From NCBI GenBank assembly GCA_047614525.1, contig JBLHEU010000003.1:1-40976 (forward strand): 40,976 nt of DNA, given 5' to 3'. Made by a program: the position numbers and the translations under genes. Shown here one piece after another: positions 11,644 to 37,806 of the stretch (within the stretch, counting starts at the first letter, position 1; every line of letters starts with the position of its first letter). The stretch is from Bacteroidia bacterium (lineage in GTDB: Bacteria; Bacteroidota; Bacteroidia; UBA10329). The notes beneath the pieces were generated by a model. That model did not search any database. It had not been told where the DNA came from and saw only the letters and a program-made list of their open reading frames with translations.

Positions 11644-12609
11644 ATGAAAAAAATCTACTCTACTATTTTATCAGTATTAACGGTTGGAGCGGTTCTTACC
11701 GCTTCTGCACAACAACAGCCTACTAATGGCGATTTCGAAAGTTGGGATGGAAACGGTGATCCAACTGGCTGGAGCGACATGAGAACCGGTGTCCTTTGTA
11801 GTTTTTGCGGTTTTGGTTCTTCACAACGAATTTTTGAGGATAACGGTGTAGTTCACAACGGTAACGCTAGTGTTAGAATTGAAACAACCGAGGTGTTCGG
11901 TAGCATCATAAATGGTACGATGACTACCGGCCAAATTCATGCACCGTCTACTACGCCTTCTGAGGGGTTTGCTCAAACACATGTAGGCCAGGCAGACTTT
12001 AACCATCCAATGACTGATATGCCAGATAGTTTGGTGTTTTACGCACAGTATAACGAAACTGGCACGTCAGATTCTGCTTCCGTGGCAGTAACGCTTCACG
12101 ACAACTCGGATTACAGAGACCCGAACGGAGATGACAGTCAGGTAATTGCTTATGTGAGAAAACGATTTCAAACTGCAGGTATTGGTAACTGGGTTAGAAT
12201 TTCTGCGCCATTTGATTACTCTGGAGGCTCTTCTAATCCTATCGCTTACGCCTTAATGACTTTCACATCAAGCTATCAGCCAGGTGCTGGAAGTAGCTCT
12301 GCGAAACTTTGGGTAGATGATTTCGAATTCATATACAACCCAGACCTAACTGGAGTTGAGGAATTGGCTGATGTTGTTGGGGTTTATCCGAACCCAACAA
12401 ATGATGGTAGGATTACCATCAACCTTGGATACGATAACCTTACTGGTTCTGCTACTGTGCTAAACATGATGGGACAAACTGTTGGTTTGTTCAACTTCTC
12501 AAATGAGAATAAGATTAACGTAGAAATCAACCAGCCTACTGGAATGTATTTCATCAATCTTCAAACAGAAAACGGAAGATCCACTACAGTGAGAGTAGTT
12601 AAGAGCTAA
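11644..12609 (+). CDS. T9SS type-A cargo protein with a PCMD-like (putative carbohydrate metabolism) domain
   Basis: Signal peptide; NGDFESW, PDSLVFY and SKLWVDDFEFIY motifs; C-terminal sorting domain VYPNPTNDG...GMYFINL...RVVK. Confidence 0.8.
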   Translation: MKKIYSTILSVLTVGAVLTASAQQQPTNGDFESWDGNGDPTGWSDMRTGVLCSFCGFGSSQRIFEDNGVVHNGNASVRIETTEVFGSIINGTMTTGQIHAPSTTPSEGFAQTHVGQADFNHPMTDMPDSLVFYAQYNETGTSDSASVAVTLHDNSDYRDPNGDDSQVIAYVRKRFQTAGIGNWVRISAPFDYSGGSSNPIAYALMTFTSSYQPGAGSSSAKLWVDDFEFIYNPDLTGVEELADVVGVYPNPTNDGRITINLGYDNLTGSATVLNMMGQTVGLFNFSNENKINVEINQPTGMYFINLQTENGRSTTVRVVKS

Positions 12610-19316: not shown

Positions 19317-19828
19317 TTTTGTAATGATTTCATTTGCTTTTTAGCCTTGGTAACCAAGGTTTGGCGTTGCTGCAAAATAATTACTTCTAAGTACAATTTG
19401 TATTCAGGAATGAGCGCTGGATTACGTTTGCAGATAAACTCCAACAAACGCATGCTGGCATTTTTAACTGCTGGTTTGGCGTAGGGTTTCCCTAATTCTT
19501 CAAAAGCATAAGTGGCAGCCAAACCATCATGCTCTGTCGGAAACTTACTGTGGCTCAAATACCAAATAGTCATCCACCGGAACCATTCATGAGGCGGGTC
19601 ATTCATTTTGCTTAAAAGCATCTCAATCTTCGGGAAAAGCAAAGACGGCTTCTTCTTAAACGTTTGTCCAAGAATAAAACCACTACGGTGGGCTATGTGT
19701 CCTTCTTCTCTATAAAATGAGTTAAAGACTTCTTCAAACACCTTGATGTCGGATGCTATGAAAGTTGATATGCTTTTAGACTTATCAGCGTCCCAGCGGT
19801 TGTAAAGAAGAGCGCGCCAGTCTTTCAT
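19301..19828 (-). CDS. Hypothetical alpha-helical (HEAT/ARM-like) protein
   Basis: 175-aa ORF overlapping both neighbours; amphipathic helical pattern. Confidence 0.6.
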   Translation of the reverse strand: MKDWRALLYNRWDADKSKSISTFIASDIKVFEEVFNSFYREEGHIAHRSGFILGQTFKKKPSLLFPKIEMLLSKMNDPPHEWFRWMTIWYLSHSKFPTEHDGLAATYAFEELGKPYAKPAVKNASMRLLEFICKRNPALIPEYKLYLEVIILQQRQTLVTKAKKQMKSLQKWEVD

Positions 19829-20802
19829 TCGTGTTTTCTATTGGCCAGCACATTGTCTAAAGTCCATTCAATGCGCTCTTGGTTTTCGGTACTTCTAATA
19901 CTACAGCTTGATTTGCTGCAAATTCTGCAAGAACTAGGGGCGCACGGGTCGGTATGAATGAACATTTCAACTCCTTCGGGATTACTGCCTTTTACTATTT
20001 GTTCAGCAGTTTCAATCTCAACATGAGCTTCTTCAACTGTGAGGTAGGAGGGAACCGTAATGTGGCAATCTATATGAATATTCTTGCCAAACTTTTGAGC
20101 TCTAAAGTTGTGTAAATCAATCAAGTTCTCTGTCCTGTTCAAGTTCAATTCAGTAATTAATTGTTTCAGTAAATCAAAATCAGCTTCATCCATAATCCCT
20201 GCAAACGATTTTCGAATTTCCTTTATTCCGATAAAGCCAATAAACACCCCAAACCCAAGTGCAATTGCACTATCAATCCACGCATATCCAGTTAGCAAGA
20301 CAATACCCAAACCGATTATCATTCCAAAGGAAGTGTAGCCATCGCTTTTAAGGTGTTTACCACTGGCAACCATGGTTGGAGACTTATATTTCTTGCCGTA
20401 GTTCTCGGTAATTATGCCAAGTACAAAATTTATTGCGCCAGCTCCACCCGCTAACCACATACCCGTATCCAATTCCATCAATTGATGTTCGGTAATCAAA
20501 CCTTCAACCGATTTGTAAACGATTCCTATGCCAGCAATTAGAATAAGCGTTCCTTCAATTCCTGCAGAAATGAATTCAATTTTGCCATGGCCATACGGAT
20601 GGTCTCTGTCTTTGGGTTTTGCAGCTAAAATGAGGCTGTATAAAGCAAATGTTCCTGCAACCACATTTACAATGCTCTCCATTGCATCGGAAAAAATGGT
20701 GTTGGAGTTTGTAAGTAGATAGGCAAGGAATTTAAGTCCAAGAATTATCACACCAGTGCCAACGGCAACCCACTGAAATCGTATGTGTTTTTTGTCTTTC
20801 AA
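19825..20802 (-). CDS. Cation diffusion facilitator family transporter
   Basis: SDAMESIVN, HPYGHGKIEF, HLKSD and HIDCH motifs; Cys-rich tail HTDPCAPSSCRICSKSSC. Confidence 0.93.
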   Translation of the reverse strand: MKDKKHIRFQWVAVGTGVIILGLKFLAYLLTNSNTIFSDAMESIVNVVAGTFALYSLILAAKPKDRDHPYGHGKIEFISAGIEGTLILIAGIGIVYKSVEGLITEHQLMELDTGMWLAGGAGAINFVLGIITENYGKKYKSPTMVASGKHLKSDGYTSFGMIIGLGIVLLTGYAWIDSAIALGFGVFIGFIGIKEIRKSFAGIMDEADFDLLKQLITELNLNRTENLIDLHNFRAQKFGKNIHIDCHITVPSYLTVEEAHVEIETAEQIVKGSNPEGVEMFIHTDPCAPSSCRICSKSSCSIRSTENQERIEWTLDNVLANRKHE

Positions 20803-28922: not shown

Positions 28923-29903
28923 ATGAGCAAACCCGCCTTTTATAACGACCTTTCAATACCCGTAGTAGCTGCACCAATGTTTCTGATTTCTGGTCCTGAA
29001 ATAGTAATTGAATGCTGCAAGAATGGAGTGATAGGAACGTTTCCTGCTCTTAATCAAAGAACAACCGAGGGGTTTGAAGAATGGGTTGTAGAGATTAAAG
29101 AAGCATTGGCTGCTTTTGAGGAAGAAACGGGTAAAAAGGCTGCTCCTTATGGAGTAAACCTCATCGTACATCAAACCAATCCTAGAGTTCAAGCAGACCT
29201 TGAAATTTGTGTCAAACATCAGGTTCCAATCATCATCACATCATTAGGCGCAGTATCTCAATTGGTTGATGCTGTGCATAGCTATGGTGGACTTGTTTGG
29301 CATGATGTAATTAAGAAGCGCCATGCAGAAAAAGCTGCTGAAGCCGGAGTTGACGGATTGATATTAGTAGCTGCTGGAGCCGGGGGGCATGCAGGTACAT
29401 TGAACCCAATGCCTTTTGTTCAAGAAATTAGAGGGTTCTTTGATAAAACGATTCTATTAGCTGGTTGCATAAGCAACGGGCAAGACGTAGCTTCTGCAAT
29501 GCAGATGGGGGCTGATTTTGCTTGGATTGGCACACGCTTTATCAATACCACAGAAAGCAGAGCAAGCGAAGGTTATAGAGATATGATTATATCAAGTGGT
29601 GCCAGCGATATTGTACATACTGCAGCTGTATCTGGCGTAGCCGCAAACTTTCTAAGACCAAGTTTAGAAGCCATGGGTATCACCCAAGAAATGTGGGATA
29701 AAAAAGCCAAGATGGACTTCGGTAAAGAAATGGACGCGGCTCAAGCAGAAGCTAAAGCTTGGAAAACGCTGTGGTCTGCTGGCCAGGGTGTTACCACTAT
29801 TCATGATAATGTTACTGTTTCAGACTTGGTTTCAAGGCTAAAGGCTGAATTTGTTTCAGCGCTTGAAAGCCAAAGTAAACTGCTTGAAAAGTATTCTTCT
29901 TAG
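28923..29903 (+). CDS. Nitronate monooxygenase family flavoprotein
   Basis: PVVAAPMFLISG, GAGGHAG, GADFAWIGTRF and WSAGQG motifs. Confidence 0.92.
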   Translation: MSKPAFYNDLSIPVVAAPMFLISGPEIVIECCKNGVIGTFPALNQRTTEGFEEWVVEIKEALAAFEEETGKKAAPYGVNLIVHQTNPRVQADLEICVKHQVPIIITSLGAVSQLVDAVHSYGGLVWHDVIKKRHAEKAAEAGVDGLILVAAGAGGHAGTLNPMPFVQEIRGFFDKTILLAGCISNGQDVASAMQMGADFAWIGTRFINTTESRASEGYRDMIISSGASDIVHTAAVSGVAANFLRPSLEAMGITQEMWDKKAKMDFGKEMDAAQAEAKAWKTLWSAGQGVTTIHDNVTVSDLVSRLKAEFVSALESQSKLLEKYSS

Positions 29904-30330
29904 GAGCTGCATAAACTGACGTTGAGGCATTTCACCTGCTTACTTTCTGTAAAAAAAACATTTTGCGTAAGACTGAAGCTTAATTAATTGAATTATCTCA
30001 ATCTGAGTTTCTATACTGCAGAATAGGGCCATGACTTCAGTCAAATCCCGTCTCAAGGATAGGGTAACGTGTAGAAATAGAGAAAATCAACACCTCTAAA
30101 TCAACCTATAAATTAGTCGAAGGTCATTTTACCTGTACACCAAGAGGAAAGATTGCTGCCAAGGAAGGGGGGAGTTGATACGTGCTTCGTTAGCTGATTC
30201 TTCTCCTTTACACTAGATAAAATAAGAGATTCAGATATTTATCTGTAAGTAATTCTCTTAGAAGTGGGGTGTATTCAGAATTTCTCCATCTTTGTTTTTC
30301 AACTAGGAACACAAATGTGAATCTAGACCG

Positions 30331-30726
30331 ATGTACACAAATAATAGTCTGATTTCACAGTTTATTGCCTGCCATAATACAAGAGAAGCTCTGGCAATAA
30401 CTGATTCATGTAAATCTTTGGATGCCTTCTTGGCCGTAGTAGATTTGCATGGTGCTTACTTAAGAGTATCTGATACAGCTAAGGCAATGATTGGCTGCGA
30501 TTTGAATTGCTTGAAATCGGAAACCATTTTTTCTATGGCTATAGATACCGAAAGGCCCGAGCTATTTAAGGCTTGTTCCCGAGCCGTTATACAAGGTTCA
30601 GTTTACCGAATTTCACACCATATTAAGTGTTCCAATTCTGAGAAAGTTCCGGTGGTTACTCATATGAAGAAGGTGATAGACGATACTGGAATAGAGATGA
30701 TTCTTTGCATGAATGTAAAGGCCTAA
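30331..30726 (+). CDS. Stand-alone Cys-rich PAS-like domain protein
   Basis: AVVDLHGAYLRVSDTAKAMIG...SETIFSM...HHIKCSNSEKVPV follows the PAS/PAC pattern; 7 Cys; no output domain. Confidence 0.6.
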   Translation: MYTNNSLISQFIACHNTREALAITDSCKSLDAFLAVVDLHGAYLRVSDTAKAMIGCDLNCLKSETIFSMAIDTERPELFKACSRAVIQGSVYRISHHIKCSNSEKVPVVTHMKKVIDDTGIEMILCMNVKA

Positions 30727-30900
30727 GTCAGATTTGCTTTATCCAAGGTTATTTTTTACGCTAATCTACTTCAGTCAAACTTCATAACAAATCGTTAGAA
30801 TTCTGTAATAAACTTGGTGGCGTATTTCATTAATTCGCAAACAGAATTAGTAATTAGGAGTACAGTTATTTTTGTTGGTAAACTCTCAAGGCCGAATACA

Positions 30901-31560
30901 GTGAAAGCTCAAGCATTCAGTTTCTTATTCCTTTTGATGTTTCAGGTTGGGCAAGCTCAGTCAGCAGACTTTCAATTTGTATTTGGGTCTAAGGCTCTTA
31001 AGATAGATAGTAGCTATGTAGTAAGCCAGACTCAAATATCCATTGAAACCATTCGGTTTTACGTAAGTGGGGTAGCGCTTTACAAGGGTGGCTCTTTAGT
31101 CTGGAAAGAAGCCGAAAGCTACCATCTTATTGATGCATTAAAAACAGAGTCATTACGTATAGCAATACCTGAGGTTGATGCAGATAAAATGGTATTCCTA
31201 ATTGGAACCGATAGCCTAACCAATGTATCTGGTGCAATGGGCGGAGATTTGGATCCAAGCAAAGGCATGTATTGGGCTTGGAACAGCGGTTACATCAACT
31301 TCAAACTAGAAGGAACAAGCTCAGTTTGCGATACGAGGAACAACGCTTTTCAATTTCATTTAGGTGGATATGCTTATCCTAATGCAACGGTGCAATCCGT
31401 TGAATTGGAACGTACATCAAACACAATTCTTGTAGATGTAAAAGCTTTTTTAGAAGGGGTTGATTTGGCAAAGCATAACACAGTTATGTCGCCTGGACAA
31501 GAGGCTGTTACGCTTGCCAAAAGGACAGCAACTATCTTTAGAATGAAGAATGAAAAATAG
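30901..31560 (+). CDS. mbnP: MbnP-family copper-binding protein
   Basis: Probable GTG start at 30901 with a signal peptide; RFYVS, YHLID, GDLDPSKGMYWAWNSGYINFKLEG (WxW) and FHLGGY motifs. Confidence 0.85.
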   Translation: MKAQAFSFLFLLMFQVGQAQSADFQFVFGSKALKIDSSYVVSQTQISIETIRFYVSGVALYKGGSLVWKEAESYHLIDALKTESLRIAIPEVDADKMVFLIGTDSLTNVSGAMGGDLDPSKGMYWAWNSGYINFKLEGTSSVCDTRNNAFQFHLGGYAYPNATVQSVELERTSNTILVDVKAFLEGVDLAKHNTVMSPGQEAVTLAKRTATIFRMKNEK

Positions 31561-32566
31561 CATTGCGGCTTTCATTCTTTTGAGTTTTGGTCTGATGGCC
31601 GCAACTGTGCCATCTTTGACTAAAGTGGGGTTAGAATATCCTGAAAGCTGGCCAGAACCAGTTTATGATTTCATTAAAAGTCCACTTACTAAAGAAGGAA
31701 TTGCTCTGGGAAGAAAGCTGTTCTACGACCCAATACTCTCCGCGGATAGTACCATATCTTGTAGTAATTGTCATTTATCGTTTACTGCTTTTACCCATGT
31801 AGACCATGATTTAAGCCATGGGATAAGAGACAGCATTGGCACGCGTAATTCTGCAGCTTTAATGAATTTGGCTTGGAGCAAGAAGTTGATGTGGGATGGC
31901 GCAGTCAACCATATAGACATGCAGGCTTTGGCGCCCATTACCCATCCAGCAGAGATGGGCGAGGATTTGAATAATGTGCTTAAGAAGCTTCAACGAACTC
32001 ATACTTATCCAAGTTTATTTCAAATTGTATTTGGCGATAGCATGATTACAGGAGAACACTTGTTAAAAGCGCTTTCTCAGTTTCAATTAACGTTAGTTTC
32101 GGCTAATTCTAAATATGATAAGATGAAACGGGGAGAGGTCAGCTATTCTGAACAGGAGGAGAGTGGTTATGAATTGTATAAGGCCAATTGTAACACATGC
32201 CATCAAGAGCCATTGTTTACCAACGGAGAGTTTGAGAATACAGGCTTACAAGTTGATTCTACCTTGAATGACTATGGAAGAATGCTCATCACCAAAAACC
32301 CAAAAGATTCATTGCTATTTAAGGTTCCAACCTTGAGAAATATTGAGTTCTCATATCCTTACATGCATGATGGGCGGTTTAAGACGCTTAGACAAGTGCT
32401 AAATCATTACTCAGAAGACATATCATCATCCCAAACATTGGCATACGAACTTGAAAATGGCATTCCCTTAACCAGTAATGAGAAGGTTGACTTGACTGCT
32501 TTTTTACTCACACTTACAGACAAAGAATTCTTATTCAACCCAGAATTCTCTTTTCCTAGAAATTGA
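31550..32566 (+). CDS. mbnH: Di-heme cytochrome c peroxidase/MauG family enzyme, MbnH-like
   Basis: LGRKLFYDPILS, CSNCH, RNS...N, MWDG, CNTCH, FKVPTLRN and PYMHDGRF motifs; overlaps mbnP. Confidence 0.85.
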   Translation: MKNSIAAFILLSFGLMAATVPSLTKVGLEYPESWPEPVYDFIKSPLTKEGIALGRKLFYDPILSADSTISCSNCHLSFTAFTHVDHDLSHGIRDSIGTRNSAALMNLAWSKKLMWDGAVNHIDMQALAPITHPAEMGEDLNNVLKKLQRTHTYPSLFQIVFGDSMITGEHLLKALSQFQLTLVSANSKYDKMKRGEVSYSEQEESGYELYKANCNTCHQEPLFTNGEFENTGLQVDSTLNDYGRMLITKNPKDSLLFKVPTLRNIEFSYPYMHDGRFKTLRQVLNHYSEDISSSQTLAYELENGIPLTSNEKVDLTAFLLTLTDKEFLFNPEFSFPRN

Positions 32567-32611
32567 AAATGAACAATCAAAAACAATAACTATCAACTAA
32601 TCTAACATACA

Positions 32612-33964
32612 ATGAAACGTACTTTATTCTCTCTCTTTGGTCTCCTTGCTATAACGCAAGTATCGGCTCAGCAGGCAGCATCGCCAACGCACCCAGCAGT
32701 TTATTCTTGGTTACAGAACACTACAGAAACTGGCACCTTTTATAATCAAGGAAACTCAACTGCTCAGAACAACGGCATTCTCGTTAATTGTCAGGAGGTG
32801 GAATATTCTAATGACTTTGTTTACGCGCATACCGAAGGAGTTCCTGCTTATACAACGGGTCCGTTCTTAGATGGCAATCCATCTGCGGCAACGGCACAAG
32901 GAGACGTTTATAAAATTCCATTAAACCCAACACCAAGTAATAATCCATCAAATACAACTGGCGGTACAATTGGTGTTTTTGTCAATGGAGTTTCGTTATT
33001 TGATTACCGTGATGGAGTAGCTTGGAATCCGAGTACCAATGCACTTTGCGGTGGCCCAGGTAATCCAATGTGTCCGGGTGGCCCAACGGCATCCATGGAT
33101 TGGAACCGAGATGCGATACCAGCCGAAATGGGCGGTTTCGATTGCTCAAAAGCACACCCTGCAATGGGTAATTACCATCATCATCAAAACCCTTCAGCCT
33201 TTGACTTAGATCAAAACGTGGTTTCAACTATCTGTAACTTGTATGATGCAGAAGGGTTGTATGCCATTAATACTTCTGAGCATTCGCCACTGTTAGGCTT
33301 TGCTTATGACGGTTATCCAATTTATGGCGCTTATGGTTATGCAACCGAAAGTGGAACTGGGGTGATTACAAGAATTAAGTCTGGTTATGAGTTGTCGACC
33401 GCTACAACCAGAGCCAACGGCCCTGATGTTAATGCAACGTATTTTAACGGCTACTTCCGCGAAGATTACACTTGGGTTGCTCATTCTGGAGAAGAAGAAT
33501 ACCTAGACGAGCACAACGGAAGAAACTGCGTAACTCCCGAATATCCTGGTGGAATTTATGCTTATTTCTGTACTATAGACGAAGACTGGAACTCAGTTTA
33601 TCCATATGCTGTTGGACCAACTTTTTACGGAACCTACGCTAACCGTAGCGTTACCTCGGTAACTGAAGCCACAACCGTATACACGCCACCTTCTGTTGGG
33701 CTGACCGAAGCTGAAGAGCAAGAAATGGACGTAGTTGTTTTTCCAAACCCAGCATCTGACTTGGTTGCTTTACAAGTAAAAGGTCTGGTTAAAGAGAACC
33801 TAGCCATTACCGTTTTGGACATTACCGGAAAAGTGATTGCTGAAGATGTGCTGACAGCAGGAACGACCATCTGGTATTTGGATACAAAGACTCTATACGA
33901 TGGTGTTTACATCATCAAAATTGGAAATACCATTGCTAAACAAGTAACGGTAGCAAGAAATTAG
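32612..33964 (+). CDS. YHYH-domain protein with T9SS type-A sorting domain
   Basis: Signal peptide; IGVFVNGV, AHP..GNYHHH, HSPLLGFAYDGYPIYG, LDEHNGR and TPEYPGGIYAYF motifs; C-terminal sorting domain VFPNPASD...GVYIIKI. Confidence 0.88.
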   Translation: MKRTLFSLFGLLAITQVSAQQAASPTHPAVYSWLQNTTETGTFYNQGNSTAQNNGILVNCQEVEYSNDFVYAHTEGVPAYTTGPFLDGNPSAATAQGDVYKIPLNPTPSNNPSNTTGGTIGVFVNGVSLFDYRDGVAWNPSTNALCGGPGNPMCPGGPTASMDWNRDAIPAEMGGFDCSKAHPAMGNYHHHQNPSAFDLDQNVVSTICNLYDAEGLYAINTSEHSPLLGFAYDGYPIYGAYGYATESGTGVITRIKSGYELSTATTRANGPDVNATYFNGYFREDYTWVAHSGEEEYLDEHNGRNCVTPEYPGGIYAYFCTIDEDWNSVYPYAVGPTFYGTYANRSVTSVTEATTVYTPPSVGLTEAEEQEMDVVVFPNPASDLVALQVKGLVKENLAITVLDITGKVIAEDVLTAGTTIWYLDTKTLYDGVYIIKIGNTIAKQVTVARN

Positions 33965-34016
33965 GGCTACGGTTACAACTGCATTAATGAATTGAATAGT
34001 TAGTTGGTTGAAGTGC

Positions 34017-34053
34017 AAAGGACCGACATGCTTCTGCGTGTTGGTCCTTTTTT
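34017..34053 (+). terminator. Intrinsic terminator closing the mbnP-mbnH-YHYH unit
   Basis: AAAGGACCGACATGC-ttct-GCGTGTTGGTCCTTT followed by a T tract. Confidence 0.8.
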
Positions 34054-34274
34054 ATTGGTTTAAGTAATGTGTTATTTTTGAAAACGATAACCTGGTTATT
34101 ACTTGCGGTAAATGCGTAGAAGGAGGTTCTTAAATCGGAAACGTTTGGGAGTTGAAAAAGTAAAATGATTCTCAGGTTGTTACCTAAAGGGTATCCCAAT
34201 TTGATTATCAATGTGACGTGTGACACTCGATATATTTTTAGCCACAGAGACACAGAATTTAGCTGAATACGTCA

Positions 34275-34332
34275 CGTCAACCTGAACTTGTTTCAGCATC
34301 TAATCAGACCCTGAAACAAGTTCAGGGTGACG
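34275..34332. repeat. REP-like inverted doublet (family B)
   Basis: CGTCAACCTGAACTTGTTTCAGCATCT-aatc-AGACCCTGAAACAAGTTCAGGGTGACG. The arms are near reverse complements and each contains an internal CTGAA..TTCAG palindrome. Confidence 0.75.
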
Positions 34333-34347
34333 CTATTAAAAAAGAAG

Positions 34348-35535
34348 CTAGCTGAATAGGAGCACCAATTGAGCTAATCCGGCCACTCCGCCTAAAACGG
34401 CACCAACAAGAATTAGAATCCACTCATCTTCTTGGAATGCAGGACGCAGCACAGCTTCAAATTCATCGGGAGGGAGCCCGGCCATTTTCTCTCGCATGGT
34501 GGTTTCTAGGTCGAGCACATCTTCTGCATATTCGAAGGTGCGATTAATGGAATGGGGGAGGCTCTCTACAAACCTGGTGGCTGCCATATCCTTTAGCTCG
34601 TCATACTTTTTAGTGCCAGCAAAAATTTGGTAGATGTTTCTTGATATACCAATCTGGTCATCAATAGCACGTTTAACATGCCCTTGAAGTATGGTAATCA
34701 TTTTGTCAGATGCTTTACCACGGAATATCCTTTCAAACATCCGTTCTACGGTTAATATTTTAGACGATACAATCTTGGAGTACTCGGCTGCTACTTCGTT
34801 CTGGCGCTTAATGAATAAACCGTGAATTTTAATGCCTAGGAAGTTGATTTCCTTCTTAGGATTGAAAATCATTTTGAGTGCTAACCAGTTAGTTGCCCAC
34901 CCAACAATAAGACCGCCAACGGGCAAGAGCCACCAAGAATCGTTGAAGAACCATACAATGGCTTGGATGATTCCGAATAGGAACCCGAAGTAAAGCCCAG
35001 AGGTTCTGATGAATTTAAATTCTTCTTCGCCACACTTTAAGAATATTTCGTTGGTAAGCAATTTGTCTGCCGTAAGGTGTTCTACCACTAATCCTTTAAT
35101 GTCTAGAAACTCCTCTATGTTGTCTCTTACATCTAGCATCATTTCTTCTGCCACGGCAGGCATTTGAGAAACCGCCTGCTTGTAGATGGTCTCCTTAACC
35201 AGGTTAGGGGTAGCAAGCCACATTAATCCTGCTTCTTTTTTCATCACTTCGTCAATCATTTGACGCGCCATTTTCTCTAACCCAGGTTGCAAGTCGGCAG
35301 CAACACGTTTGGGTTCTATCTTCTCAAAAAGCGCCTGAACATCAATGAGCTTGCTCGTCATTAAGTCCACCGATTTTTCAGCCATTTTACCTGCTTTAGA
35401 AGGGACAATGCCCTGCCAACCCAGAAAAGGCTTGATGCCCACAAATTCGATGGGGTAGAAGGTCATCTGAATGGCCAACCAGTTTGTTCCCCAGCCAACA
35501 AGGCCGCTTATAATGGGTATTGCCAAATAAGGCAA
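34348..35535 (-). CDS. DUF445-family membrane protein
   Basis: Duplicated GWxTNWLAxxMxFxP motif, WQGIVP, and C-terminal FQEDEWILILVGAVLG. Confidence 0.88.
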   Translation of the reverse strand: MPYLAIPIISGLVGWGTNWLAIQMTFYPIEFVGIKPFLGWQGIVPSKAGKMAEKSVDLMTSKLIDVQALFEKIEPKRVAADLQPGLEKMARQMIDEVMKKEAGLMWLATPNLVKETIYKQAVSQMPAVAEEMMLDVRDNIEEFLDIKGLVVEHLTADKLLTNEIFLKCGEEEFKFIRTSGLYFGFLFGIIQAIVWFFNDSWWLLPVGGLIVGWATNWLALKMIFNPKKEINFLGIKIHGLFIKRQNEVAAEYSKIVSSKILTVERMFERIFRGKASDKMITILQGHVKRAIDDQIGISRNIYQIFAGTKKYDELKDMAATRFVESLPHSINRTFEYAEDVLDLETTMREKMAGLPPDEFEAVLRPAFQEDEWILILVGAVLGGVAGLAQLVLLFS

Positions 35536-35711: not shown

Positions 35712-37286
35712 TCAATCTTTCACCCAACCTCTCGGATTACCTAAAAAATTCTTTTTGAATTGGGAGAGAACATTCCGCATTTCTTCCACCTTTTTTTCTT
35801 GCCGTGTAGCAACGTTATAAGATTCGTACGGGCTGTCTTTGAGGTTATACAGTTTTGGCCAATTATCTAGTCTATTAATTGTAGTGTCTTTTTCTGGCGG
35901 AGTATATGTGGGCACATACTCGCTGGTTGTGTAATTAGGGTGTTCTAAAGGAATAGGCCAGGTATAGCTGTAGTTGGTTTCTATAAATTTCCAATCGCCT
36001 ATTCTAACAGCTTCAAAGGCATAATCATGAAAAAGGAACAACGGACGGGAATAGGCAAGGCCTGTTTTGGTGGTGTCTGCTAGGATATCGAACAGATTGT
36101 GGCCGTCAATAATTCTGTCTTTTGGTAATGATATTCCTGCTGCTGCCATGAGGGTGGGCAAGAGGTCTATGCCCATGGCTGGAACAGCGGTTTTGTATGC
36201 TGCTTTTATCTTTTTAGGATACCGAATAATGAAGGGTACTTTATATCCGCCTTCGTACATCTGGCCTTTTCTGCCTCTCAATCCGCAGGGGTTTCCTTCA
36301 AACCAAGGACCATTATCGCTAGTAACCACAACTATGGTGTTTTCGGTAAGGTTTAAACTGTCTAGGTGTTTTAGTATTTCTCCAACGCTGTAATCAAACT
36401 CTTCTACAGCATCGCCATAGGCGCCTCCTTTAGATTTTCCCTTAAATCCTTTTGATGGAAAAAAGGGTTGATGCGGGTCTTTGTGCGCTAGGTAGAGGAA
36501 GAAGGGTTCGTCTTTGTTTTGGGTGATAAAGCTTTTGGCCGAATCTGTAAACAACTGCGTGTAATGCTCTTGGTCTAAACCAATATCGTTTAGCATTTTA
36601 CGGTCGTTTTCGTAAAAGGCAACTGGCCAATCGTCATTTGAGGCTTCTAGCCCAACGAAATAATCAAAGCCATGATTGAAAGGATGAAATTGATCGTCTT
36701 GCGAGATGGTGCCTAGGTGCCATTTACCCACTACACCTGTTTTGTAGTTGGCAAGCTTCAGCATTTCTGGAATGATAATCTCTGATTGCATAATGCCGTT
36801 AATAATGTTGCGCTCGCCACGCATATCTACAGCTCCTAAGGTGTTTGCTAAGCGGTTGCCTACATTCATCACAAAACTGGTATTTACATGATGAAAAGGG
36901 TAGGCGAGACCCTGTCTTATTGCATATCTACCGGATAGAAAACCAAACCGCGAAGGGGTGCAAATAGAGGAGGGTGCGTAAAAGTTGGTGAACACTACAC
37001 CTTGACTTGCAAGAGTGTCTAAATTTTGGGTGTTAATGGCCGTTTGTTGGTTGTAACTCACATCTCCATAGCCTAAATCGTCCGCCAAAATGAAGACGAT
37101 ATTCGGTTTGTCTGCCATAGGCGTTACATCTACTATGTCTTCGATATTAAAAGGGCGGTCGTCAAAATCTGAACGAACCAAGCCTTGGTGCGAAGGACCT
37201 TGCAAGAAGTACCATGTAAGTATTGCGCCAACTAATAGAATGAGGAAAAACGATAGGCTTAAGAAAAGACGTTTGAAAAACTTCAT
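35712..37286 (-). CDS. Cys-type (formylglycine-dependent) arylsulfatase with N-terminal membrane anchor
   Basis: PNIVFILADDLGYGD, CTPSR, GKWHLG, HGFDYF, SDNG and LYNL motifs. Confidence 0.95.
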   Translation of the reverse strand: MKFFKRLFLSLSFFLILLVGAILTWYFLQGPSHQGLVRSDFDDRPFNIEDIVDVTPMADKPNIVFILADDLGYGDVSYNQQTAINTQNLDTLASQGVVFTNFYAPSSICTPSRFGFLSGRYAIRQGLAYPFHHVNTSFVMNVGNRLANTLGAVDMRGERNIINGIMQSEIIIPEMLKLANYKTGVVGKWHLGTISQDDQFHPFNHGFDYFVGLEASNDDWPVAFYENDRKMLNDIGLDQEHYTQLFTDSAKSFITQNKDEPFFLYLAHKDPHQPFFPSKGFKGKSKGGAYGDAVEEFDYSVGEILKHLDSLNLTENTIVVVTSDNGPWFEGNPCGLRGRKGQMYEGGYKVPFIIRYPKKIKAAYKTAVPAMGIDLLPTLMAAAGISLPKDRIIDGHNLFDILADTTKTGLAYSRPLFLFHDYAFEAVRIGDWKFIETNYSYTWPIPLEHPNYTTSEYVPTYTPPEKDTTINRLDNWPKLYNLKDSPYESYNVATRQEKKVEEMRNVLSQFKKNFLGNPRGWVKD

Positions 37287-37380: not shown

Positions 37381-37806
37381 ATGTTAAAATCTTGGTTGAG
37401 TGTAGGATTAGTAAGCTTTATGCTAATTGGTTGTGCTGATAGTGCATCGGATAATGAAGTACAAAGTGAAACAGAAGAGTCTGTAACGGTAGTTGGTACT
37501 GAGAGTACTAATGCAGAAGCAGAAGTAAAATATACAGTTACAGAGGCACCCTCAGACCAAGAGAAAGTTGCTGCGCCAGCTTCTGGATTGAATCCAGCTC
37601 ATGGTCAACCAGGACATAATTGTGATATTGAAGTAGGGGCACCATTAGATGGTTCTGGCGGTAAAAGTCAGCCAGTATTGGCACCAAACCTAGCTACGCA
37701 ACCAGCAGCACCAAGTCAGCCAGCAACAGGAGCATTGAATCCTGCACATGGTCAGCCTGGGCACGATTGTGATGTTGCCGTTGGCGCGCCACTGCCTGCT
37801 AAATAG
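37381..37806 (+). CDS. Lipoprotein with two His/Cys-containing 20-aa repeats
   Basis: Lipobox LIGC; repeats LNPAHGQPGHNCDIEVGAPL and LNPAHGQPGHDCDVAVGAPL separated by low-complexity linkers. Confidence 0.85.
   Translation: MLKSWLSVGLVSFMLIGCADSASDNEVQSETEESVTVVGTESTNAEAEVKYTVTEAPSDQEKVAAPASGLNPAHGQPGHNCDIEVGAPLDGSGGKSQPVLAPNLATQPAAPSQPATGALNPAHGQPGHDCDVAVGAPLPAK

Follow-up and report, generated by a model that had tools for sequence, protein, structure and literature searches.

The locus described here raises the question of why the gene for an exported protein of the YHYH family directly follows a gene pair of the MbnP/MbnH type. The genes lie in a window of 40,976 nt (the whole stretch of DNA that was analysed, positions 1–40,976 of the forward strand of contig JBLHEU010000003.1, assembly GCA_047614525.1) from a Bacteroidia bacterium (Bacteroidota; UBA10329) whose genome (G000) is 82% complete. 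They encode an MbnP-like protein, a di-haem MauG/MbnH-like protein and a YHYH protein that ends in a sorting domain of the type IX secretion system (T9SS). The answer favoured here, tentatively and with slightly less than even confidence, is that the trio constitutes a metal-responsive envelope module in which the periplasmic MbnP/MauG pair would work with the exported YHYH metalloprotein, a reading that is for the most part inferred. In more general terms, the three genes would form a conserved envelope unit of Bacteroidota and neighbouring lineages that deals with a transition metal, either copper or zinc. As far as the compared sequences indicate, what is new is that an MbnP/MbnH-type pair is joined by a conserved partner predicted to be exported and, among relatives, by a metal-sensing sigma module.

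The three genes and their predicted products

The first gene (30901–31560, + strand) encodes 219 residues counted from a GTG codon at position 30901, within a frame that is open from 30814; this start had been proposed from the sequence alone and is favoured by the alignment with relatives. The product belongs to the MbnP family (PF20243, 133 bits against a cut-off of 27, E 1.5e-38) and carries a Sec-type signal-like stretch at its N-terminus. The WxW motif and the conserved His pointed out in the original prediction are both borne out, as the former occupies residues 125–127 within the sequence GMYWAWNSGY and Met123, Trp125, Trp127 and His153 are invariant across 11 Bacteroidota MbnP-like proteins. 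It is therefore plausible that the window protein keeps a Met/Trp/His set usable as metal ligands. A profile built from the 11 proteins aligned GMyWaW to GMAWNW of PDB entry 7l6g_A with a weak E-value (0.14), and the single MbnP-like sequence gave no match among solved structures (phmmer). The MbnP_like_WxW equivalog TIGR04052 matched residues 150–220 of the 248-aa frame with 34.3 bits, below its cut-off of 140. One Cys is present in the 219 residues, and the four-Cys motif to which the molecule name of 7L6G refers does not occur. According to PMC11951088, the copper site of MbnP consists of a His, a Met, a water molecule and kynurenine-174, the latter arising when MbnH converts a Trp in the conserved WxW motif of MbnP, and deletion of either mbnP or mbnH leaves copper-bound methanobactin in the medium (PMC13729199).

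The second gene (31550–32566, + strand; 338 aa) overlaps the first by 11 nt, as originally described. Its product is a member of the CCP_MauG family (PF03150, 175.3 bits against a cut-off of 25.6, E 1.6e-51) with two CxxCH motifs, at residues 71 and 214, both invariant in 16 relatives. The MbnH equivalog TIGR04039 was the top NCBIfam match, with 205.8 bits and a cut-off of 362.85, and the MauG model TIGR03791 reached 172.8 bits against 443.85. Among solved structures the protein matched the Nitrosomonas peroxidase 1iqc (3.6e-39), 6e1c over its full length (1.6e-38) and MauG 3l4m (5.9e-26). The entry 6e1c is named "Di-heme enzyme" in the database, and we take it to be MbnH. Tyr287 is nearly invariant in the 16 relatives and aligns with the Tyr of the segment IYSEG in 6e1c, presumably the position of the axial Tyr of MauG-type enzymes, the distal ligand of the second haem, for which canonical peroxidases use Met.

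The third gene (32612–33964, + strand; 450 aa) starts 45 nt downstream of the MauG-like gene and combines a YHYH domain (PF14240, 168.5 bits against a cut-off of 25, E 2.2e-49, residues 100–326, nt 32909–33589) with a T9SS sorting domain (PF18962, Por_Secre_tail, 41.4 bits against 27, E 1.8e-10, residues 376–441, nt 33737–33934), in agreement with the first description of the locus. The domain itself extends over about residues 22–362. His182, His189, His191, Asp233 and Asp285 are invariant in an alignment of 60 YHYH sequences, and this His3/Asp2 set is a putative metal site. Trp164, Tyr238 and Tyr318 are also invariant, and Tyr188, beside the His cluster, is nearly so. The protein had been called His-rich, a term that does not suit it, with just 9 His in 450 residues (2.0%) and one YHHH cluster. 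The YHYH domain is described as uncharacterised by Iyer et al. (PMC7824862), who predicted a zinc site of three His and one Asp and proposed a hydrolase; a bioRxiv preprint of 2026 likewise calls it uncharacterised and predicts a three-His zinc site. No published function for any member of PF14240 was found in the literature search, and the family has no solved structure.

The model of the domain, built with 60 sequences for residues 22–362, was of high quality (pLDDT 92.7, pTM 0.92). Its best match in the PDB was at E 0.11 with Foldseek, and an exhaustive alignment (VIA) to 48,161 representative chains gave a best Z of 2.6; this absence of a fold match is no proof of a new fold. With the full-length model, only the C-terminal sorting domain was matched among solved structures. 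In a viral library the only matches were further YHYH proteins, from cyanophages and giant viruses (best E 6.9e-19), the Protein Atlas returned YHYH clusters alone (scores 0.84–0.86), and a representative library held 2610 YHYH matches at E 1e-3 or better.

As for export, the protein has a signal-like N-terminus, TIGR04183 (T9SS type A) is matched with 33.6 bits against a cut-off of 23, and the C-terminal 90 residues match the solved T9SS C-terminal domains 8glk_D, 8gl6_D and 8qb1_A. SprA and GldM of the T9SS machinery were found above their cut-offs in the same genome. The protein is accordingly classed, by its domain matches, as a predicted T9SS type A cargo. Elsewhere in the window, a 321-aa protein (11644–12609, + strand) has a T9SS sorting domain as its only recognisable part. 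YHYH domains also occur in other architectures: a 682-aa fusion (L020:7488–9536, genome G331) joins a metallo-beta-lactamase-fold domain, YHYH and an EF-hand, and the domain is accompanied by three BACON domains in L008 and by Ig-like domains in L010 and L011.

Behind the trio, 52 nt past the YHYH stop codon, lies an intrinsic-terminator-like hairpin (34017–34050, + strand) with a stem of 15 pairs (7 G-C) and a loop of 4 followed by a T-run (TTTTATTGGTT). It corresponds to the single strong terminator noted at first, since the terminator scan found no further + strand site within the trio. The number of terminator-like sites in 29800–34500 (3, against a shuffle mean of 3.2) is not above chance, so that only the quality and the position of this hairpin count. 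The three genes are probably co-transcribed, on the basis of gene spacing alone. The intergenic region 30727–30900 (+ strand) is, as read from the sequence, the presumed promoter region of the unit; a sigma-70 scan, which does not cover Bacteroidota promoters, returned no promoter-like site there.

Conservation of the unit across genomes

Two collections were used to follow the trio beyond the window. The closest relatives are 78 YHYH loci from other species (one genome per species, 54–72% identity), which were picked for their likeness to the query YHYH and, being interrelated, do not stand for independent events; the taxa represented are Saprospiraceae, Lewinellaceae, Flavobacteriales, Crocinitomicaceae, Chitinophagales, Sphingobacteriaceae and Ignavibacteria/Kapaibacterium. 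The phylum sample comprises 401 Bacteroidota genomes, with YHYH in 59 and MbnP in 98; the YHYH matches counted as strong (E 1e-26 or better) number 37. At the 78 loci MbnP and MauG were counted with profiles made from our own alignments, within 3 kb and on the same strand.

Both genes accompany YHYH in 57 of the 78 loci, in the order MbnP-MauG-YHYH in 56 and with YHYH first in one. MauG occurs without MbnP in eight loci, three of them cut by a contig end, four with MbnP further upstream and an extra gene between MauG and YHYH, and one (L030) with a true lack of MbnP. The 13 loci with neither gene include two with less than 200 nt of upstream sequence and one with both genes on the other strand. 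Five loci other than the 57 thus hold both genes slightly more distant or on the opposite strand. L017 has a full MauG-like gene directly 5' of YHYH and no MbnP. The spacing matches that of the window: MbnP and MauG overlap or are separated by at most 20 nt in 51 of 53 loci, most commonly with a 4-nt overlap, and the gap between MauG and YHYH is at most 100 nt in 51 of 64, with a median of 45.5 nt (45 nt in the window). Long gaps hold another T9SS cargo gene, which is a second YHYH in L028 and L040.

In the phylum sample, 12 of the 37 strong matches, from several families, lie about 2 kb or less from MbnP on the same contig and strand, five in the order of the window and seven with YHYH first; in ten of the 12 loci, Pfam scans showed MbnP, CCP_MauG and YHYH side by side. 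The cassette is present in the cultured strains Aquimarina addita JCM 17106 and Neolewinella agarilytica DSM 24740, which makes experiments feasible.

The MauG-like proteins next to YHYH also stand apart by descent. In a tree of 87 proteins, a quick tree with few unlinked rows, a branch (SH-aLRT 99, length 0.82) separates all 73 YHYH-linked proteins and that of L047 (an MbnP/MauG pair 2 kb from YHYH on the opposite strand) from 13 unlinked paralogues, five of them from the genome of the window (contig C77 twice, C65, C71 and C40). This split means that the pair adjoining YHYH is a separate orthologous lineage and not any copy of MbnP/MauG, and by the tree the lineage is dedicated to YHYH loci. 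Rare co-occurrence, which would have told against the original prediction, is thus not what was found: the neighbourhood counts (57/78 and 12/37), the matching spacing and the separate MauG cluster all go with a linked unit.

The same prediction held that the secreted protein fills a slot usually taken by a transporter, an idea that does not fit this phylum, since none of 20 MbnP loci unlinked to YHYH in the phylum sample (L105–L124) adjoins a TonB-dependent receptor; in 19 of the 20 MbnP adjoins MauG. The absences reported for the window itself stand in part. The Pfam scan, which covered 38 open reading frames (ORFs) of the window, detected no TonB-dependent receptor. MbnB and MbnC (TIGR04159, TIGR04160) gave no match in the 82%-complete genome, the MbnC search being weak with no control genome positive; for mbnA, which was not searched, the claim has neither gained nor lost.

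Several observations concern MbnP/MauG pairs and di-haem genes outside the trio. The genome of the window has four MbnP/MauG pairs in all, three sets beyond that of the window. At C77:1016–4637 (L025) an MbnP with a T9SS tail is followed by two MauG-like genes, a layout repeated in L013, and this set is divergent from a sulfite-oxidase-like molybdenum enzyme and a rhodanese. At C65:13494–15072 (L026) the pair precedes TauE, MBL-rhodanese, rhodanese, Tll0287-like and thioredoxin genes, a context of sulfur metabolism, and another set occupies C71:1–1530. Ten of the 20 ordinary MbnP/MauG loci (e.g. L105:5464–5835, L118:5550–5921) are preceded by a protein of about 110–130 aa without a Pfam match, which has a one-transmembrane N-terminus, the motif C.NK.KP.L.CNGKC and a C-terminal FHPP. 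Ordinary pairs are also often flanked by an ORF of about 300–340 aa, which in one case matched Phenol_MetA_deg, presumably an outer-membrane barrel-type family. Directly 3' of YHYH, L046 (7278–8501), L058 (3127–4353) and L095 (7277–8461) have a second and divergent di-haem CCP-like gene (about 400 aa), and one lies about 2.2 kb past the last YHYH-like ORF in L097 (10610–11797); in the MauG tree these four make up a separate group with long branches.

Presumed metal sensing, metal identity and the role proposed for the unit

In many relatives three further genes precede the cassette on the same strand. They encode an extracytoplasmic function (ECF) sigma factor, a short protein of about 90–110 aa that is conserved at its N-terminus and has a single transmembrane helix, and a CnrX-like (PF13801-type) protein of about 150–190 aa, which in several cases matches PF13801 (Metal_resist) or LTXXQ and in which a His, a Glu, a His and a Cys are conserved. 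With our own profiles, the cassette-type ECF factor was found in 30 of the 78 loci and the CnrX-like protein in 31, both being present in 29. Judged by domains and order of genes, this layout of sigma factor, short protein and PF13801 protein is that of CnrH/CnrY/CnrX. PMC7826278 interprets ECF groups that encode a "heavy-metal resistance protein" at position +2 as systems for heavy-metal stress. By analogy with CnrYXH, the upstream module points to induction by the presence of metal, and this suggests that a metal-dependent or protective role fits the unit better than that of a scavenger induced by starvation.

In the window, the ORF upstream of the trio (30331–30726) encodes 131 aa without a Pfam match and with a weak PAS match below the cut-off. 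It was considered as a counterpart of the upstream proteins of the relatives and rejected, as it is homologous neither to the CnrX-like proteins nor to the Cys-motif proteins of about 120 aa.

The metal itself could be copper or zinc. Copper is suggested by the precedent of MbnP, by a SCO1/SenC gene directly 5' of MbnP in L037 (Neolewinella agarilytica) and by a multicopper oxidase with a T9SS tail directly 3' of YHYH in L031. Zinc is suggested by the site predicted in YHYH and by a Lewinella sp. metagenome-assembled genome (L030:754–7305), where a ZnuA-ZnuC-ZnuB-ZnuB run leads directly into MauG-YHYH, with no MbnP. This ZnuABC linkage was seen in L030 alone among all the loci searched and the genome of the window. 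A TonB receptor lies 3' of MauG in L050.

Other genes were noted around the unit. An arylsulfotransferase-like protein with a sorting tail lies between MauG and YHYH in L034 (4262–5911) and before MbnP in L120 (2697–4367), and an arylsulfotransferase-like ORF without a sorting-tail match precedes YHYH in L022 (6836–8386). CotH-LTD proteins with a sorting tail are placed between MauG and YHYH in L095 (3677–5941) and L099 (3675–5939). Sulfatase genes occur just downstream in L037 and L065, and the window has one at 35712–37286, on the strand opposite to the trio. A gene at 37381–37806 (+ strand), 3.3 kb past the YHYH terminator, encodes 141 aa without a Pfam match, with a lipoprotein-like signal (..LIGCADS..) and two copies of the His/Cys motif NPAHGQPGH(N/D)CD(I/V)xVGAPL; its product is a candidate small metal-binding lipoprotein. 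The window also holds a CDF-family cation efflux gene (PF01545 and a ZT_dimer domain) at 19825–20802 on the − strand.

In the mechanism proposed for the favoured metal-responsive envelope module, the di-haem enzyme would oxidise a Trp of the M-x-W-x-W motif in the MbnP-like protein to give a Met/His/kynurenine metal (copper) site, by analogy with MbnP/MbnH of Methylosinus, and the MbnP-like protein would then bind metal in the periplasm. The YHYH protein would fold in the same compartment, alongside MbnP and MauG, and might gain its metal or undergo other maturation there before export by the T9SS, to function at the cell surface either in metal binding or as a metal-dependent enzyme. In the relatives a periplasmic metal signal would switch on the whole unit; in the genome of the window the regulator would not be beside the cassette. 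A complex prediction for the MbnP-like protein (21–219), the MauG-like protein (24–338) and the YHYH domain as partner scored 0.00 against a mark of 0.32, which speaks neither for nor against binding.

A bolder reading, which we regard as doubtful, is that the dedicated MbnP/MauG pair would serve to mature YHYH in the periplasm, YHYH being a T9SS-exported enzyme whose fold has no solved representative. Controlled by the CnrX-like sensor, the pair would equip YHYH with its metal or with a Trp/Tyr-derived cofactor ahead of export. If true, cofactor maturation would here be linked to type IX secretion for the first time, and the widespread YHYH domain, which is found in bacteria, phages, giant viruses and diatoms, would receive its first function.

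Several points weigh against the favoured module. The sensor module is absent beside the window cassette, and the 82%-complete genome holds no close copy of it, the best matches, both elsewhere, being at 2.7e-24 for the cassette-type ECF factor and at a weak 9e-6 for the CnrX-like protein. The YHYH gene is found directly behind the sensor module without MbnP/MauG in L086 and L103, and no MbnP at all was detected in 15 of the 37 genomes with a strong YHYH match, 12 of them from one family with short YHYH proteins of 340–380 aa. These two findings make MbnP/MauG an accessory of YHYH and not an obligate partner; by this pattern of genes, YHYH looks like the core target of the sensor module and the pair like a frequent accessory. 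The metal remains ambiguous and each of the neighbour cues to it comes from one locus. The MbnP-like protein is distant from the characterised MbnP (34 against 140 bits, one Cys, E 0.14 to 7l6g). The synteny counts overstate independence, as the 78 loci were selected with the query and are interrelated, and the dedicated MauG lineage rests on a quick tree. In addition, a search for sequencing runs containing the organism gave 24 DNA runs and no RNA run among those listed. DNA runs from sea ice and seawater contained the organism, and in such settings trace-metal handling is ecologically relevant.

Among the alternatives, the one that survives best, although still rather unlikely, is a metal-stress regulon of independent products, in which MbnP would buffer metal in the periplasm, the di-haem enzyme would mature MbnP or remove peroxide, and the YHYH protein, anchored to the surface, would sequester metal outside the cell, the genes being co-regulated but with no hand-off between their products. 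The CnrX-like/ECF module upstream of 29 of the 78 loci fits such a regulon, as do its position before YHYH alone in L086 and L103, the similar arrangement in L019 and the fact that MbnP/MauG pairs stand alone in many contexts (19 of the 20 sampled loci); sensor systems of this kind are switched on when metal is present, by analogy with CnrYXH (PMC7826278). However, the fact that a distinct MauG/MbnP lineage accompanies YHYH across orders, with tight and conserved spacing, points to more than shared regulation, and one His3/Asp2 site in 450 residues would offer a poor capacity for sequestration.

It is unlikely that the YHYH protein is the MauG-like enzyme's own substrate, with a Trp or Tyr oxidised or cross-linked in the periplasm to give a cofactor or metal site before export, much as MauG forms the tryptophan tryptophylquinone of methylamine dehydrogenase, and with MbnP as a second substrate or an adaptor. 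Such a direct modification would agree with the MauG lineage dedicated to YHYH loci, with the MauG-like gene standing straight before YHYH without MbnP in L017 and L030, with the invariant Trp164, Tyr238 and Tyr318 and the nearly invariant Tyr188 of YHYH, and with Tyr287 of the MauG-like protein, at the position that we presume to be that of the axial Tyr, aligning with the Tyr of 6e1c. These two loci are nevertheless the only ones lacking MbnP, whereas in 57 of the 78 an MbnP with the full M-x-W-x-W...H motif is present and translationally coupled to MauG, which makes MbnP the obvious substrate. Moreover, YHYH relatives without a MauG neighbour retain the same invariant residues.

A quite improbable explanation is that the YHYH protein is a secreted zinc-dependent hydrolase acting on an extracellular polymer, a role put forward for the YHYH domains of phage tails, its adjacency to MbnP/MauG reflecting shared envelope housekeeping and not a common metal pathway. 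A three-His and Asp zinc site and a hydrolase role have been predicted for the domain (PMC7824862), the only proteins sharing its fold are structural YHYH proteins from cyanophages and giant viruses, the domain also occurs fused to BACON or Ig domains, and enzyme-like T9SS cargo (arylsulfotransferase-like, CotH-LTD) takes the same slot in L034, L095 and L099. A hydrolase of this kind would leave the metal-sensor module, the dedicated MauG lineage and the conserved operon structure unexplained; the lack of structural likeness to a known hydrolase (Foldseek, 48,161 chains) is weak evidence on the same side. Finally, a chance juxtaposition in this genome is barely credible, since 57 of the 78 loci and 12 of the 37 strong matches, drawn from several families and with two gene orders, share the adjacency, strand and spacing, even though MbnP/MauG pairs are common (98 of 401 phylum genomes) and the window's own genome has four.

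Comparison with known systems

The nearest characterised system is MbnP/MbnH of Methylosinus trichosporium OB3b (7L6G, 6E1C; the "metallo-mystery pair" TIGR04052/TIGR04039), which likewise has a Trp-rich periplasmic partner with WxW, encoded beside and overlapping a di-haem MauG-like gene. The pair is described as conserved far beyond methanobactin producers, and its transporter link in methanotrophs is published (PMC3621798). The window proteins differ from it in falling below the equivalog cut-offs (34 against 140 and 206 against 363 bits) and in the one Cys of the MbnP-like protein. They also differ in context, with no TonB receptor in the 38 window ORFs and no MbnB/MbnC match in the genome, and with a third gene, for the predicted T9SS-exported YHYH protein, to which the relatives add the CnrX-like sensor module. 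A literature search found no paper that names both MbnP and YHYH, MbnP papers outside that search possibly listing YHYH as a neighbour, and no paper with the terms "MbnP family", "metallo-mystery", "MbnH family" or "MbnP-like".

The methanotroph systems MopE/MCA2590 and CorA/CorB likewise pair a MauG-like periplasmic enzyme with a surface or secreted protein, MopE and CorA being surface or secreted kynurenine-copper proteins (PMC3621798, PMC11951088). The YHYH protein is unrelated to them in sequence and predicted fold, would be exported by the T9SS and is accompanied by an extra MbnP-like protein. While mopE and corA are repressed by copper (PMC3621798), the CnrX-like sensor near YHYH suggests induction by metal. 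In the system of MauG and pre-methylamine dehydrogenase, in which tryptophan tryptophylquinone is the cofactor, the enzyme comes from the same di-haem CCP_MauG family (MauG chains at E about 6e-26) and acts on another protein and not on a small substrate (PMC11951088). No methylamine dehydrogenase genes are found near the trio, however, and the window enzyme is closer to bacterial cytochrome c peroxidase and to 6e1c.

With CnrYXH of Cupriavidus metallidurans, which consists of an ECF sigma factor, a short anti-sigma factor and a periplasmic metal sensor of the PF13801 family, the relatives share the ECF sigma factor, the one-transmembrane protein of about 90–110 aa and the PF13801/LTXXQ-type protein. 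The order in the relatives is sigma-Y-X, the presumed targets are MbnP, MauG and YHYH instead of an efflux pump, the CnrX-like proteins have a conserved Cys, and the module is absent beside the window cassette. The YHYH proteins of phage tails or baseplates and of diatoms belong to the same family (PF14240, matched by the window protein with 168.5 bits), and the cyanophage members have the same predicted fold (E 6.9e-19); the His triad and Asp of the window protein match those noted by Iyer et al. (PMC7824862). In contrast to these phage and diatom proteins, the YHYH protein of the window is a stand-alone cellular protein, predicted to be exported by the T9SS and encoded in a probable MbnP/MauG operon, and an operon that joins an MbnP/MbnH-type pair to YHYH, often under a metal-sensing sigma factor, gives both families a testable context.

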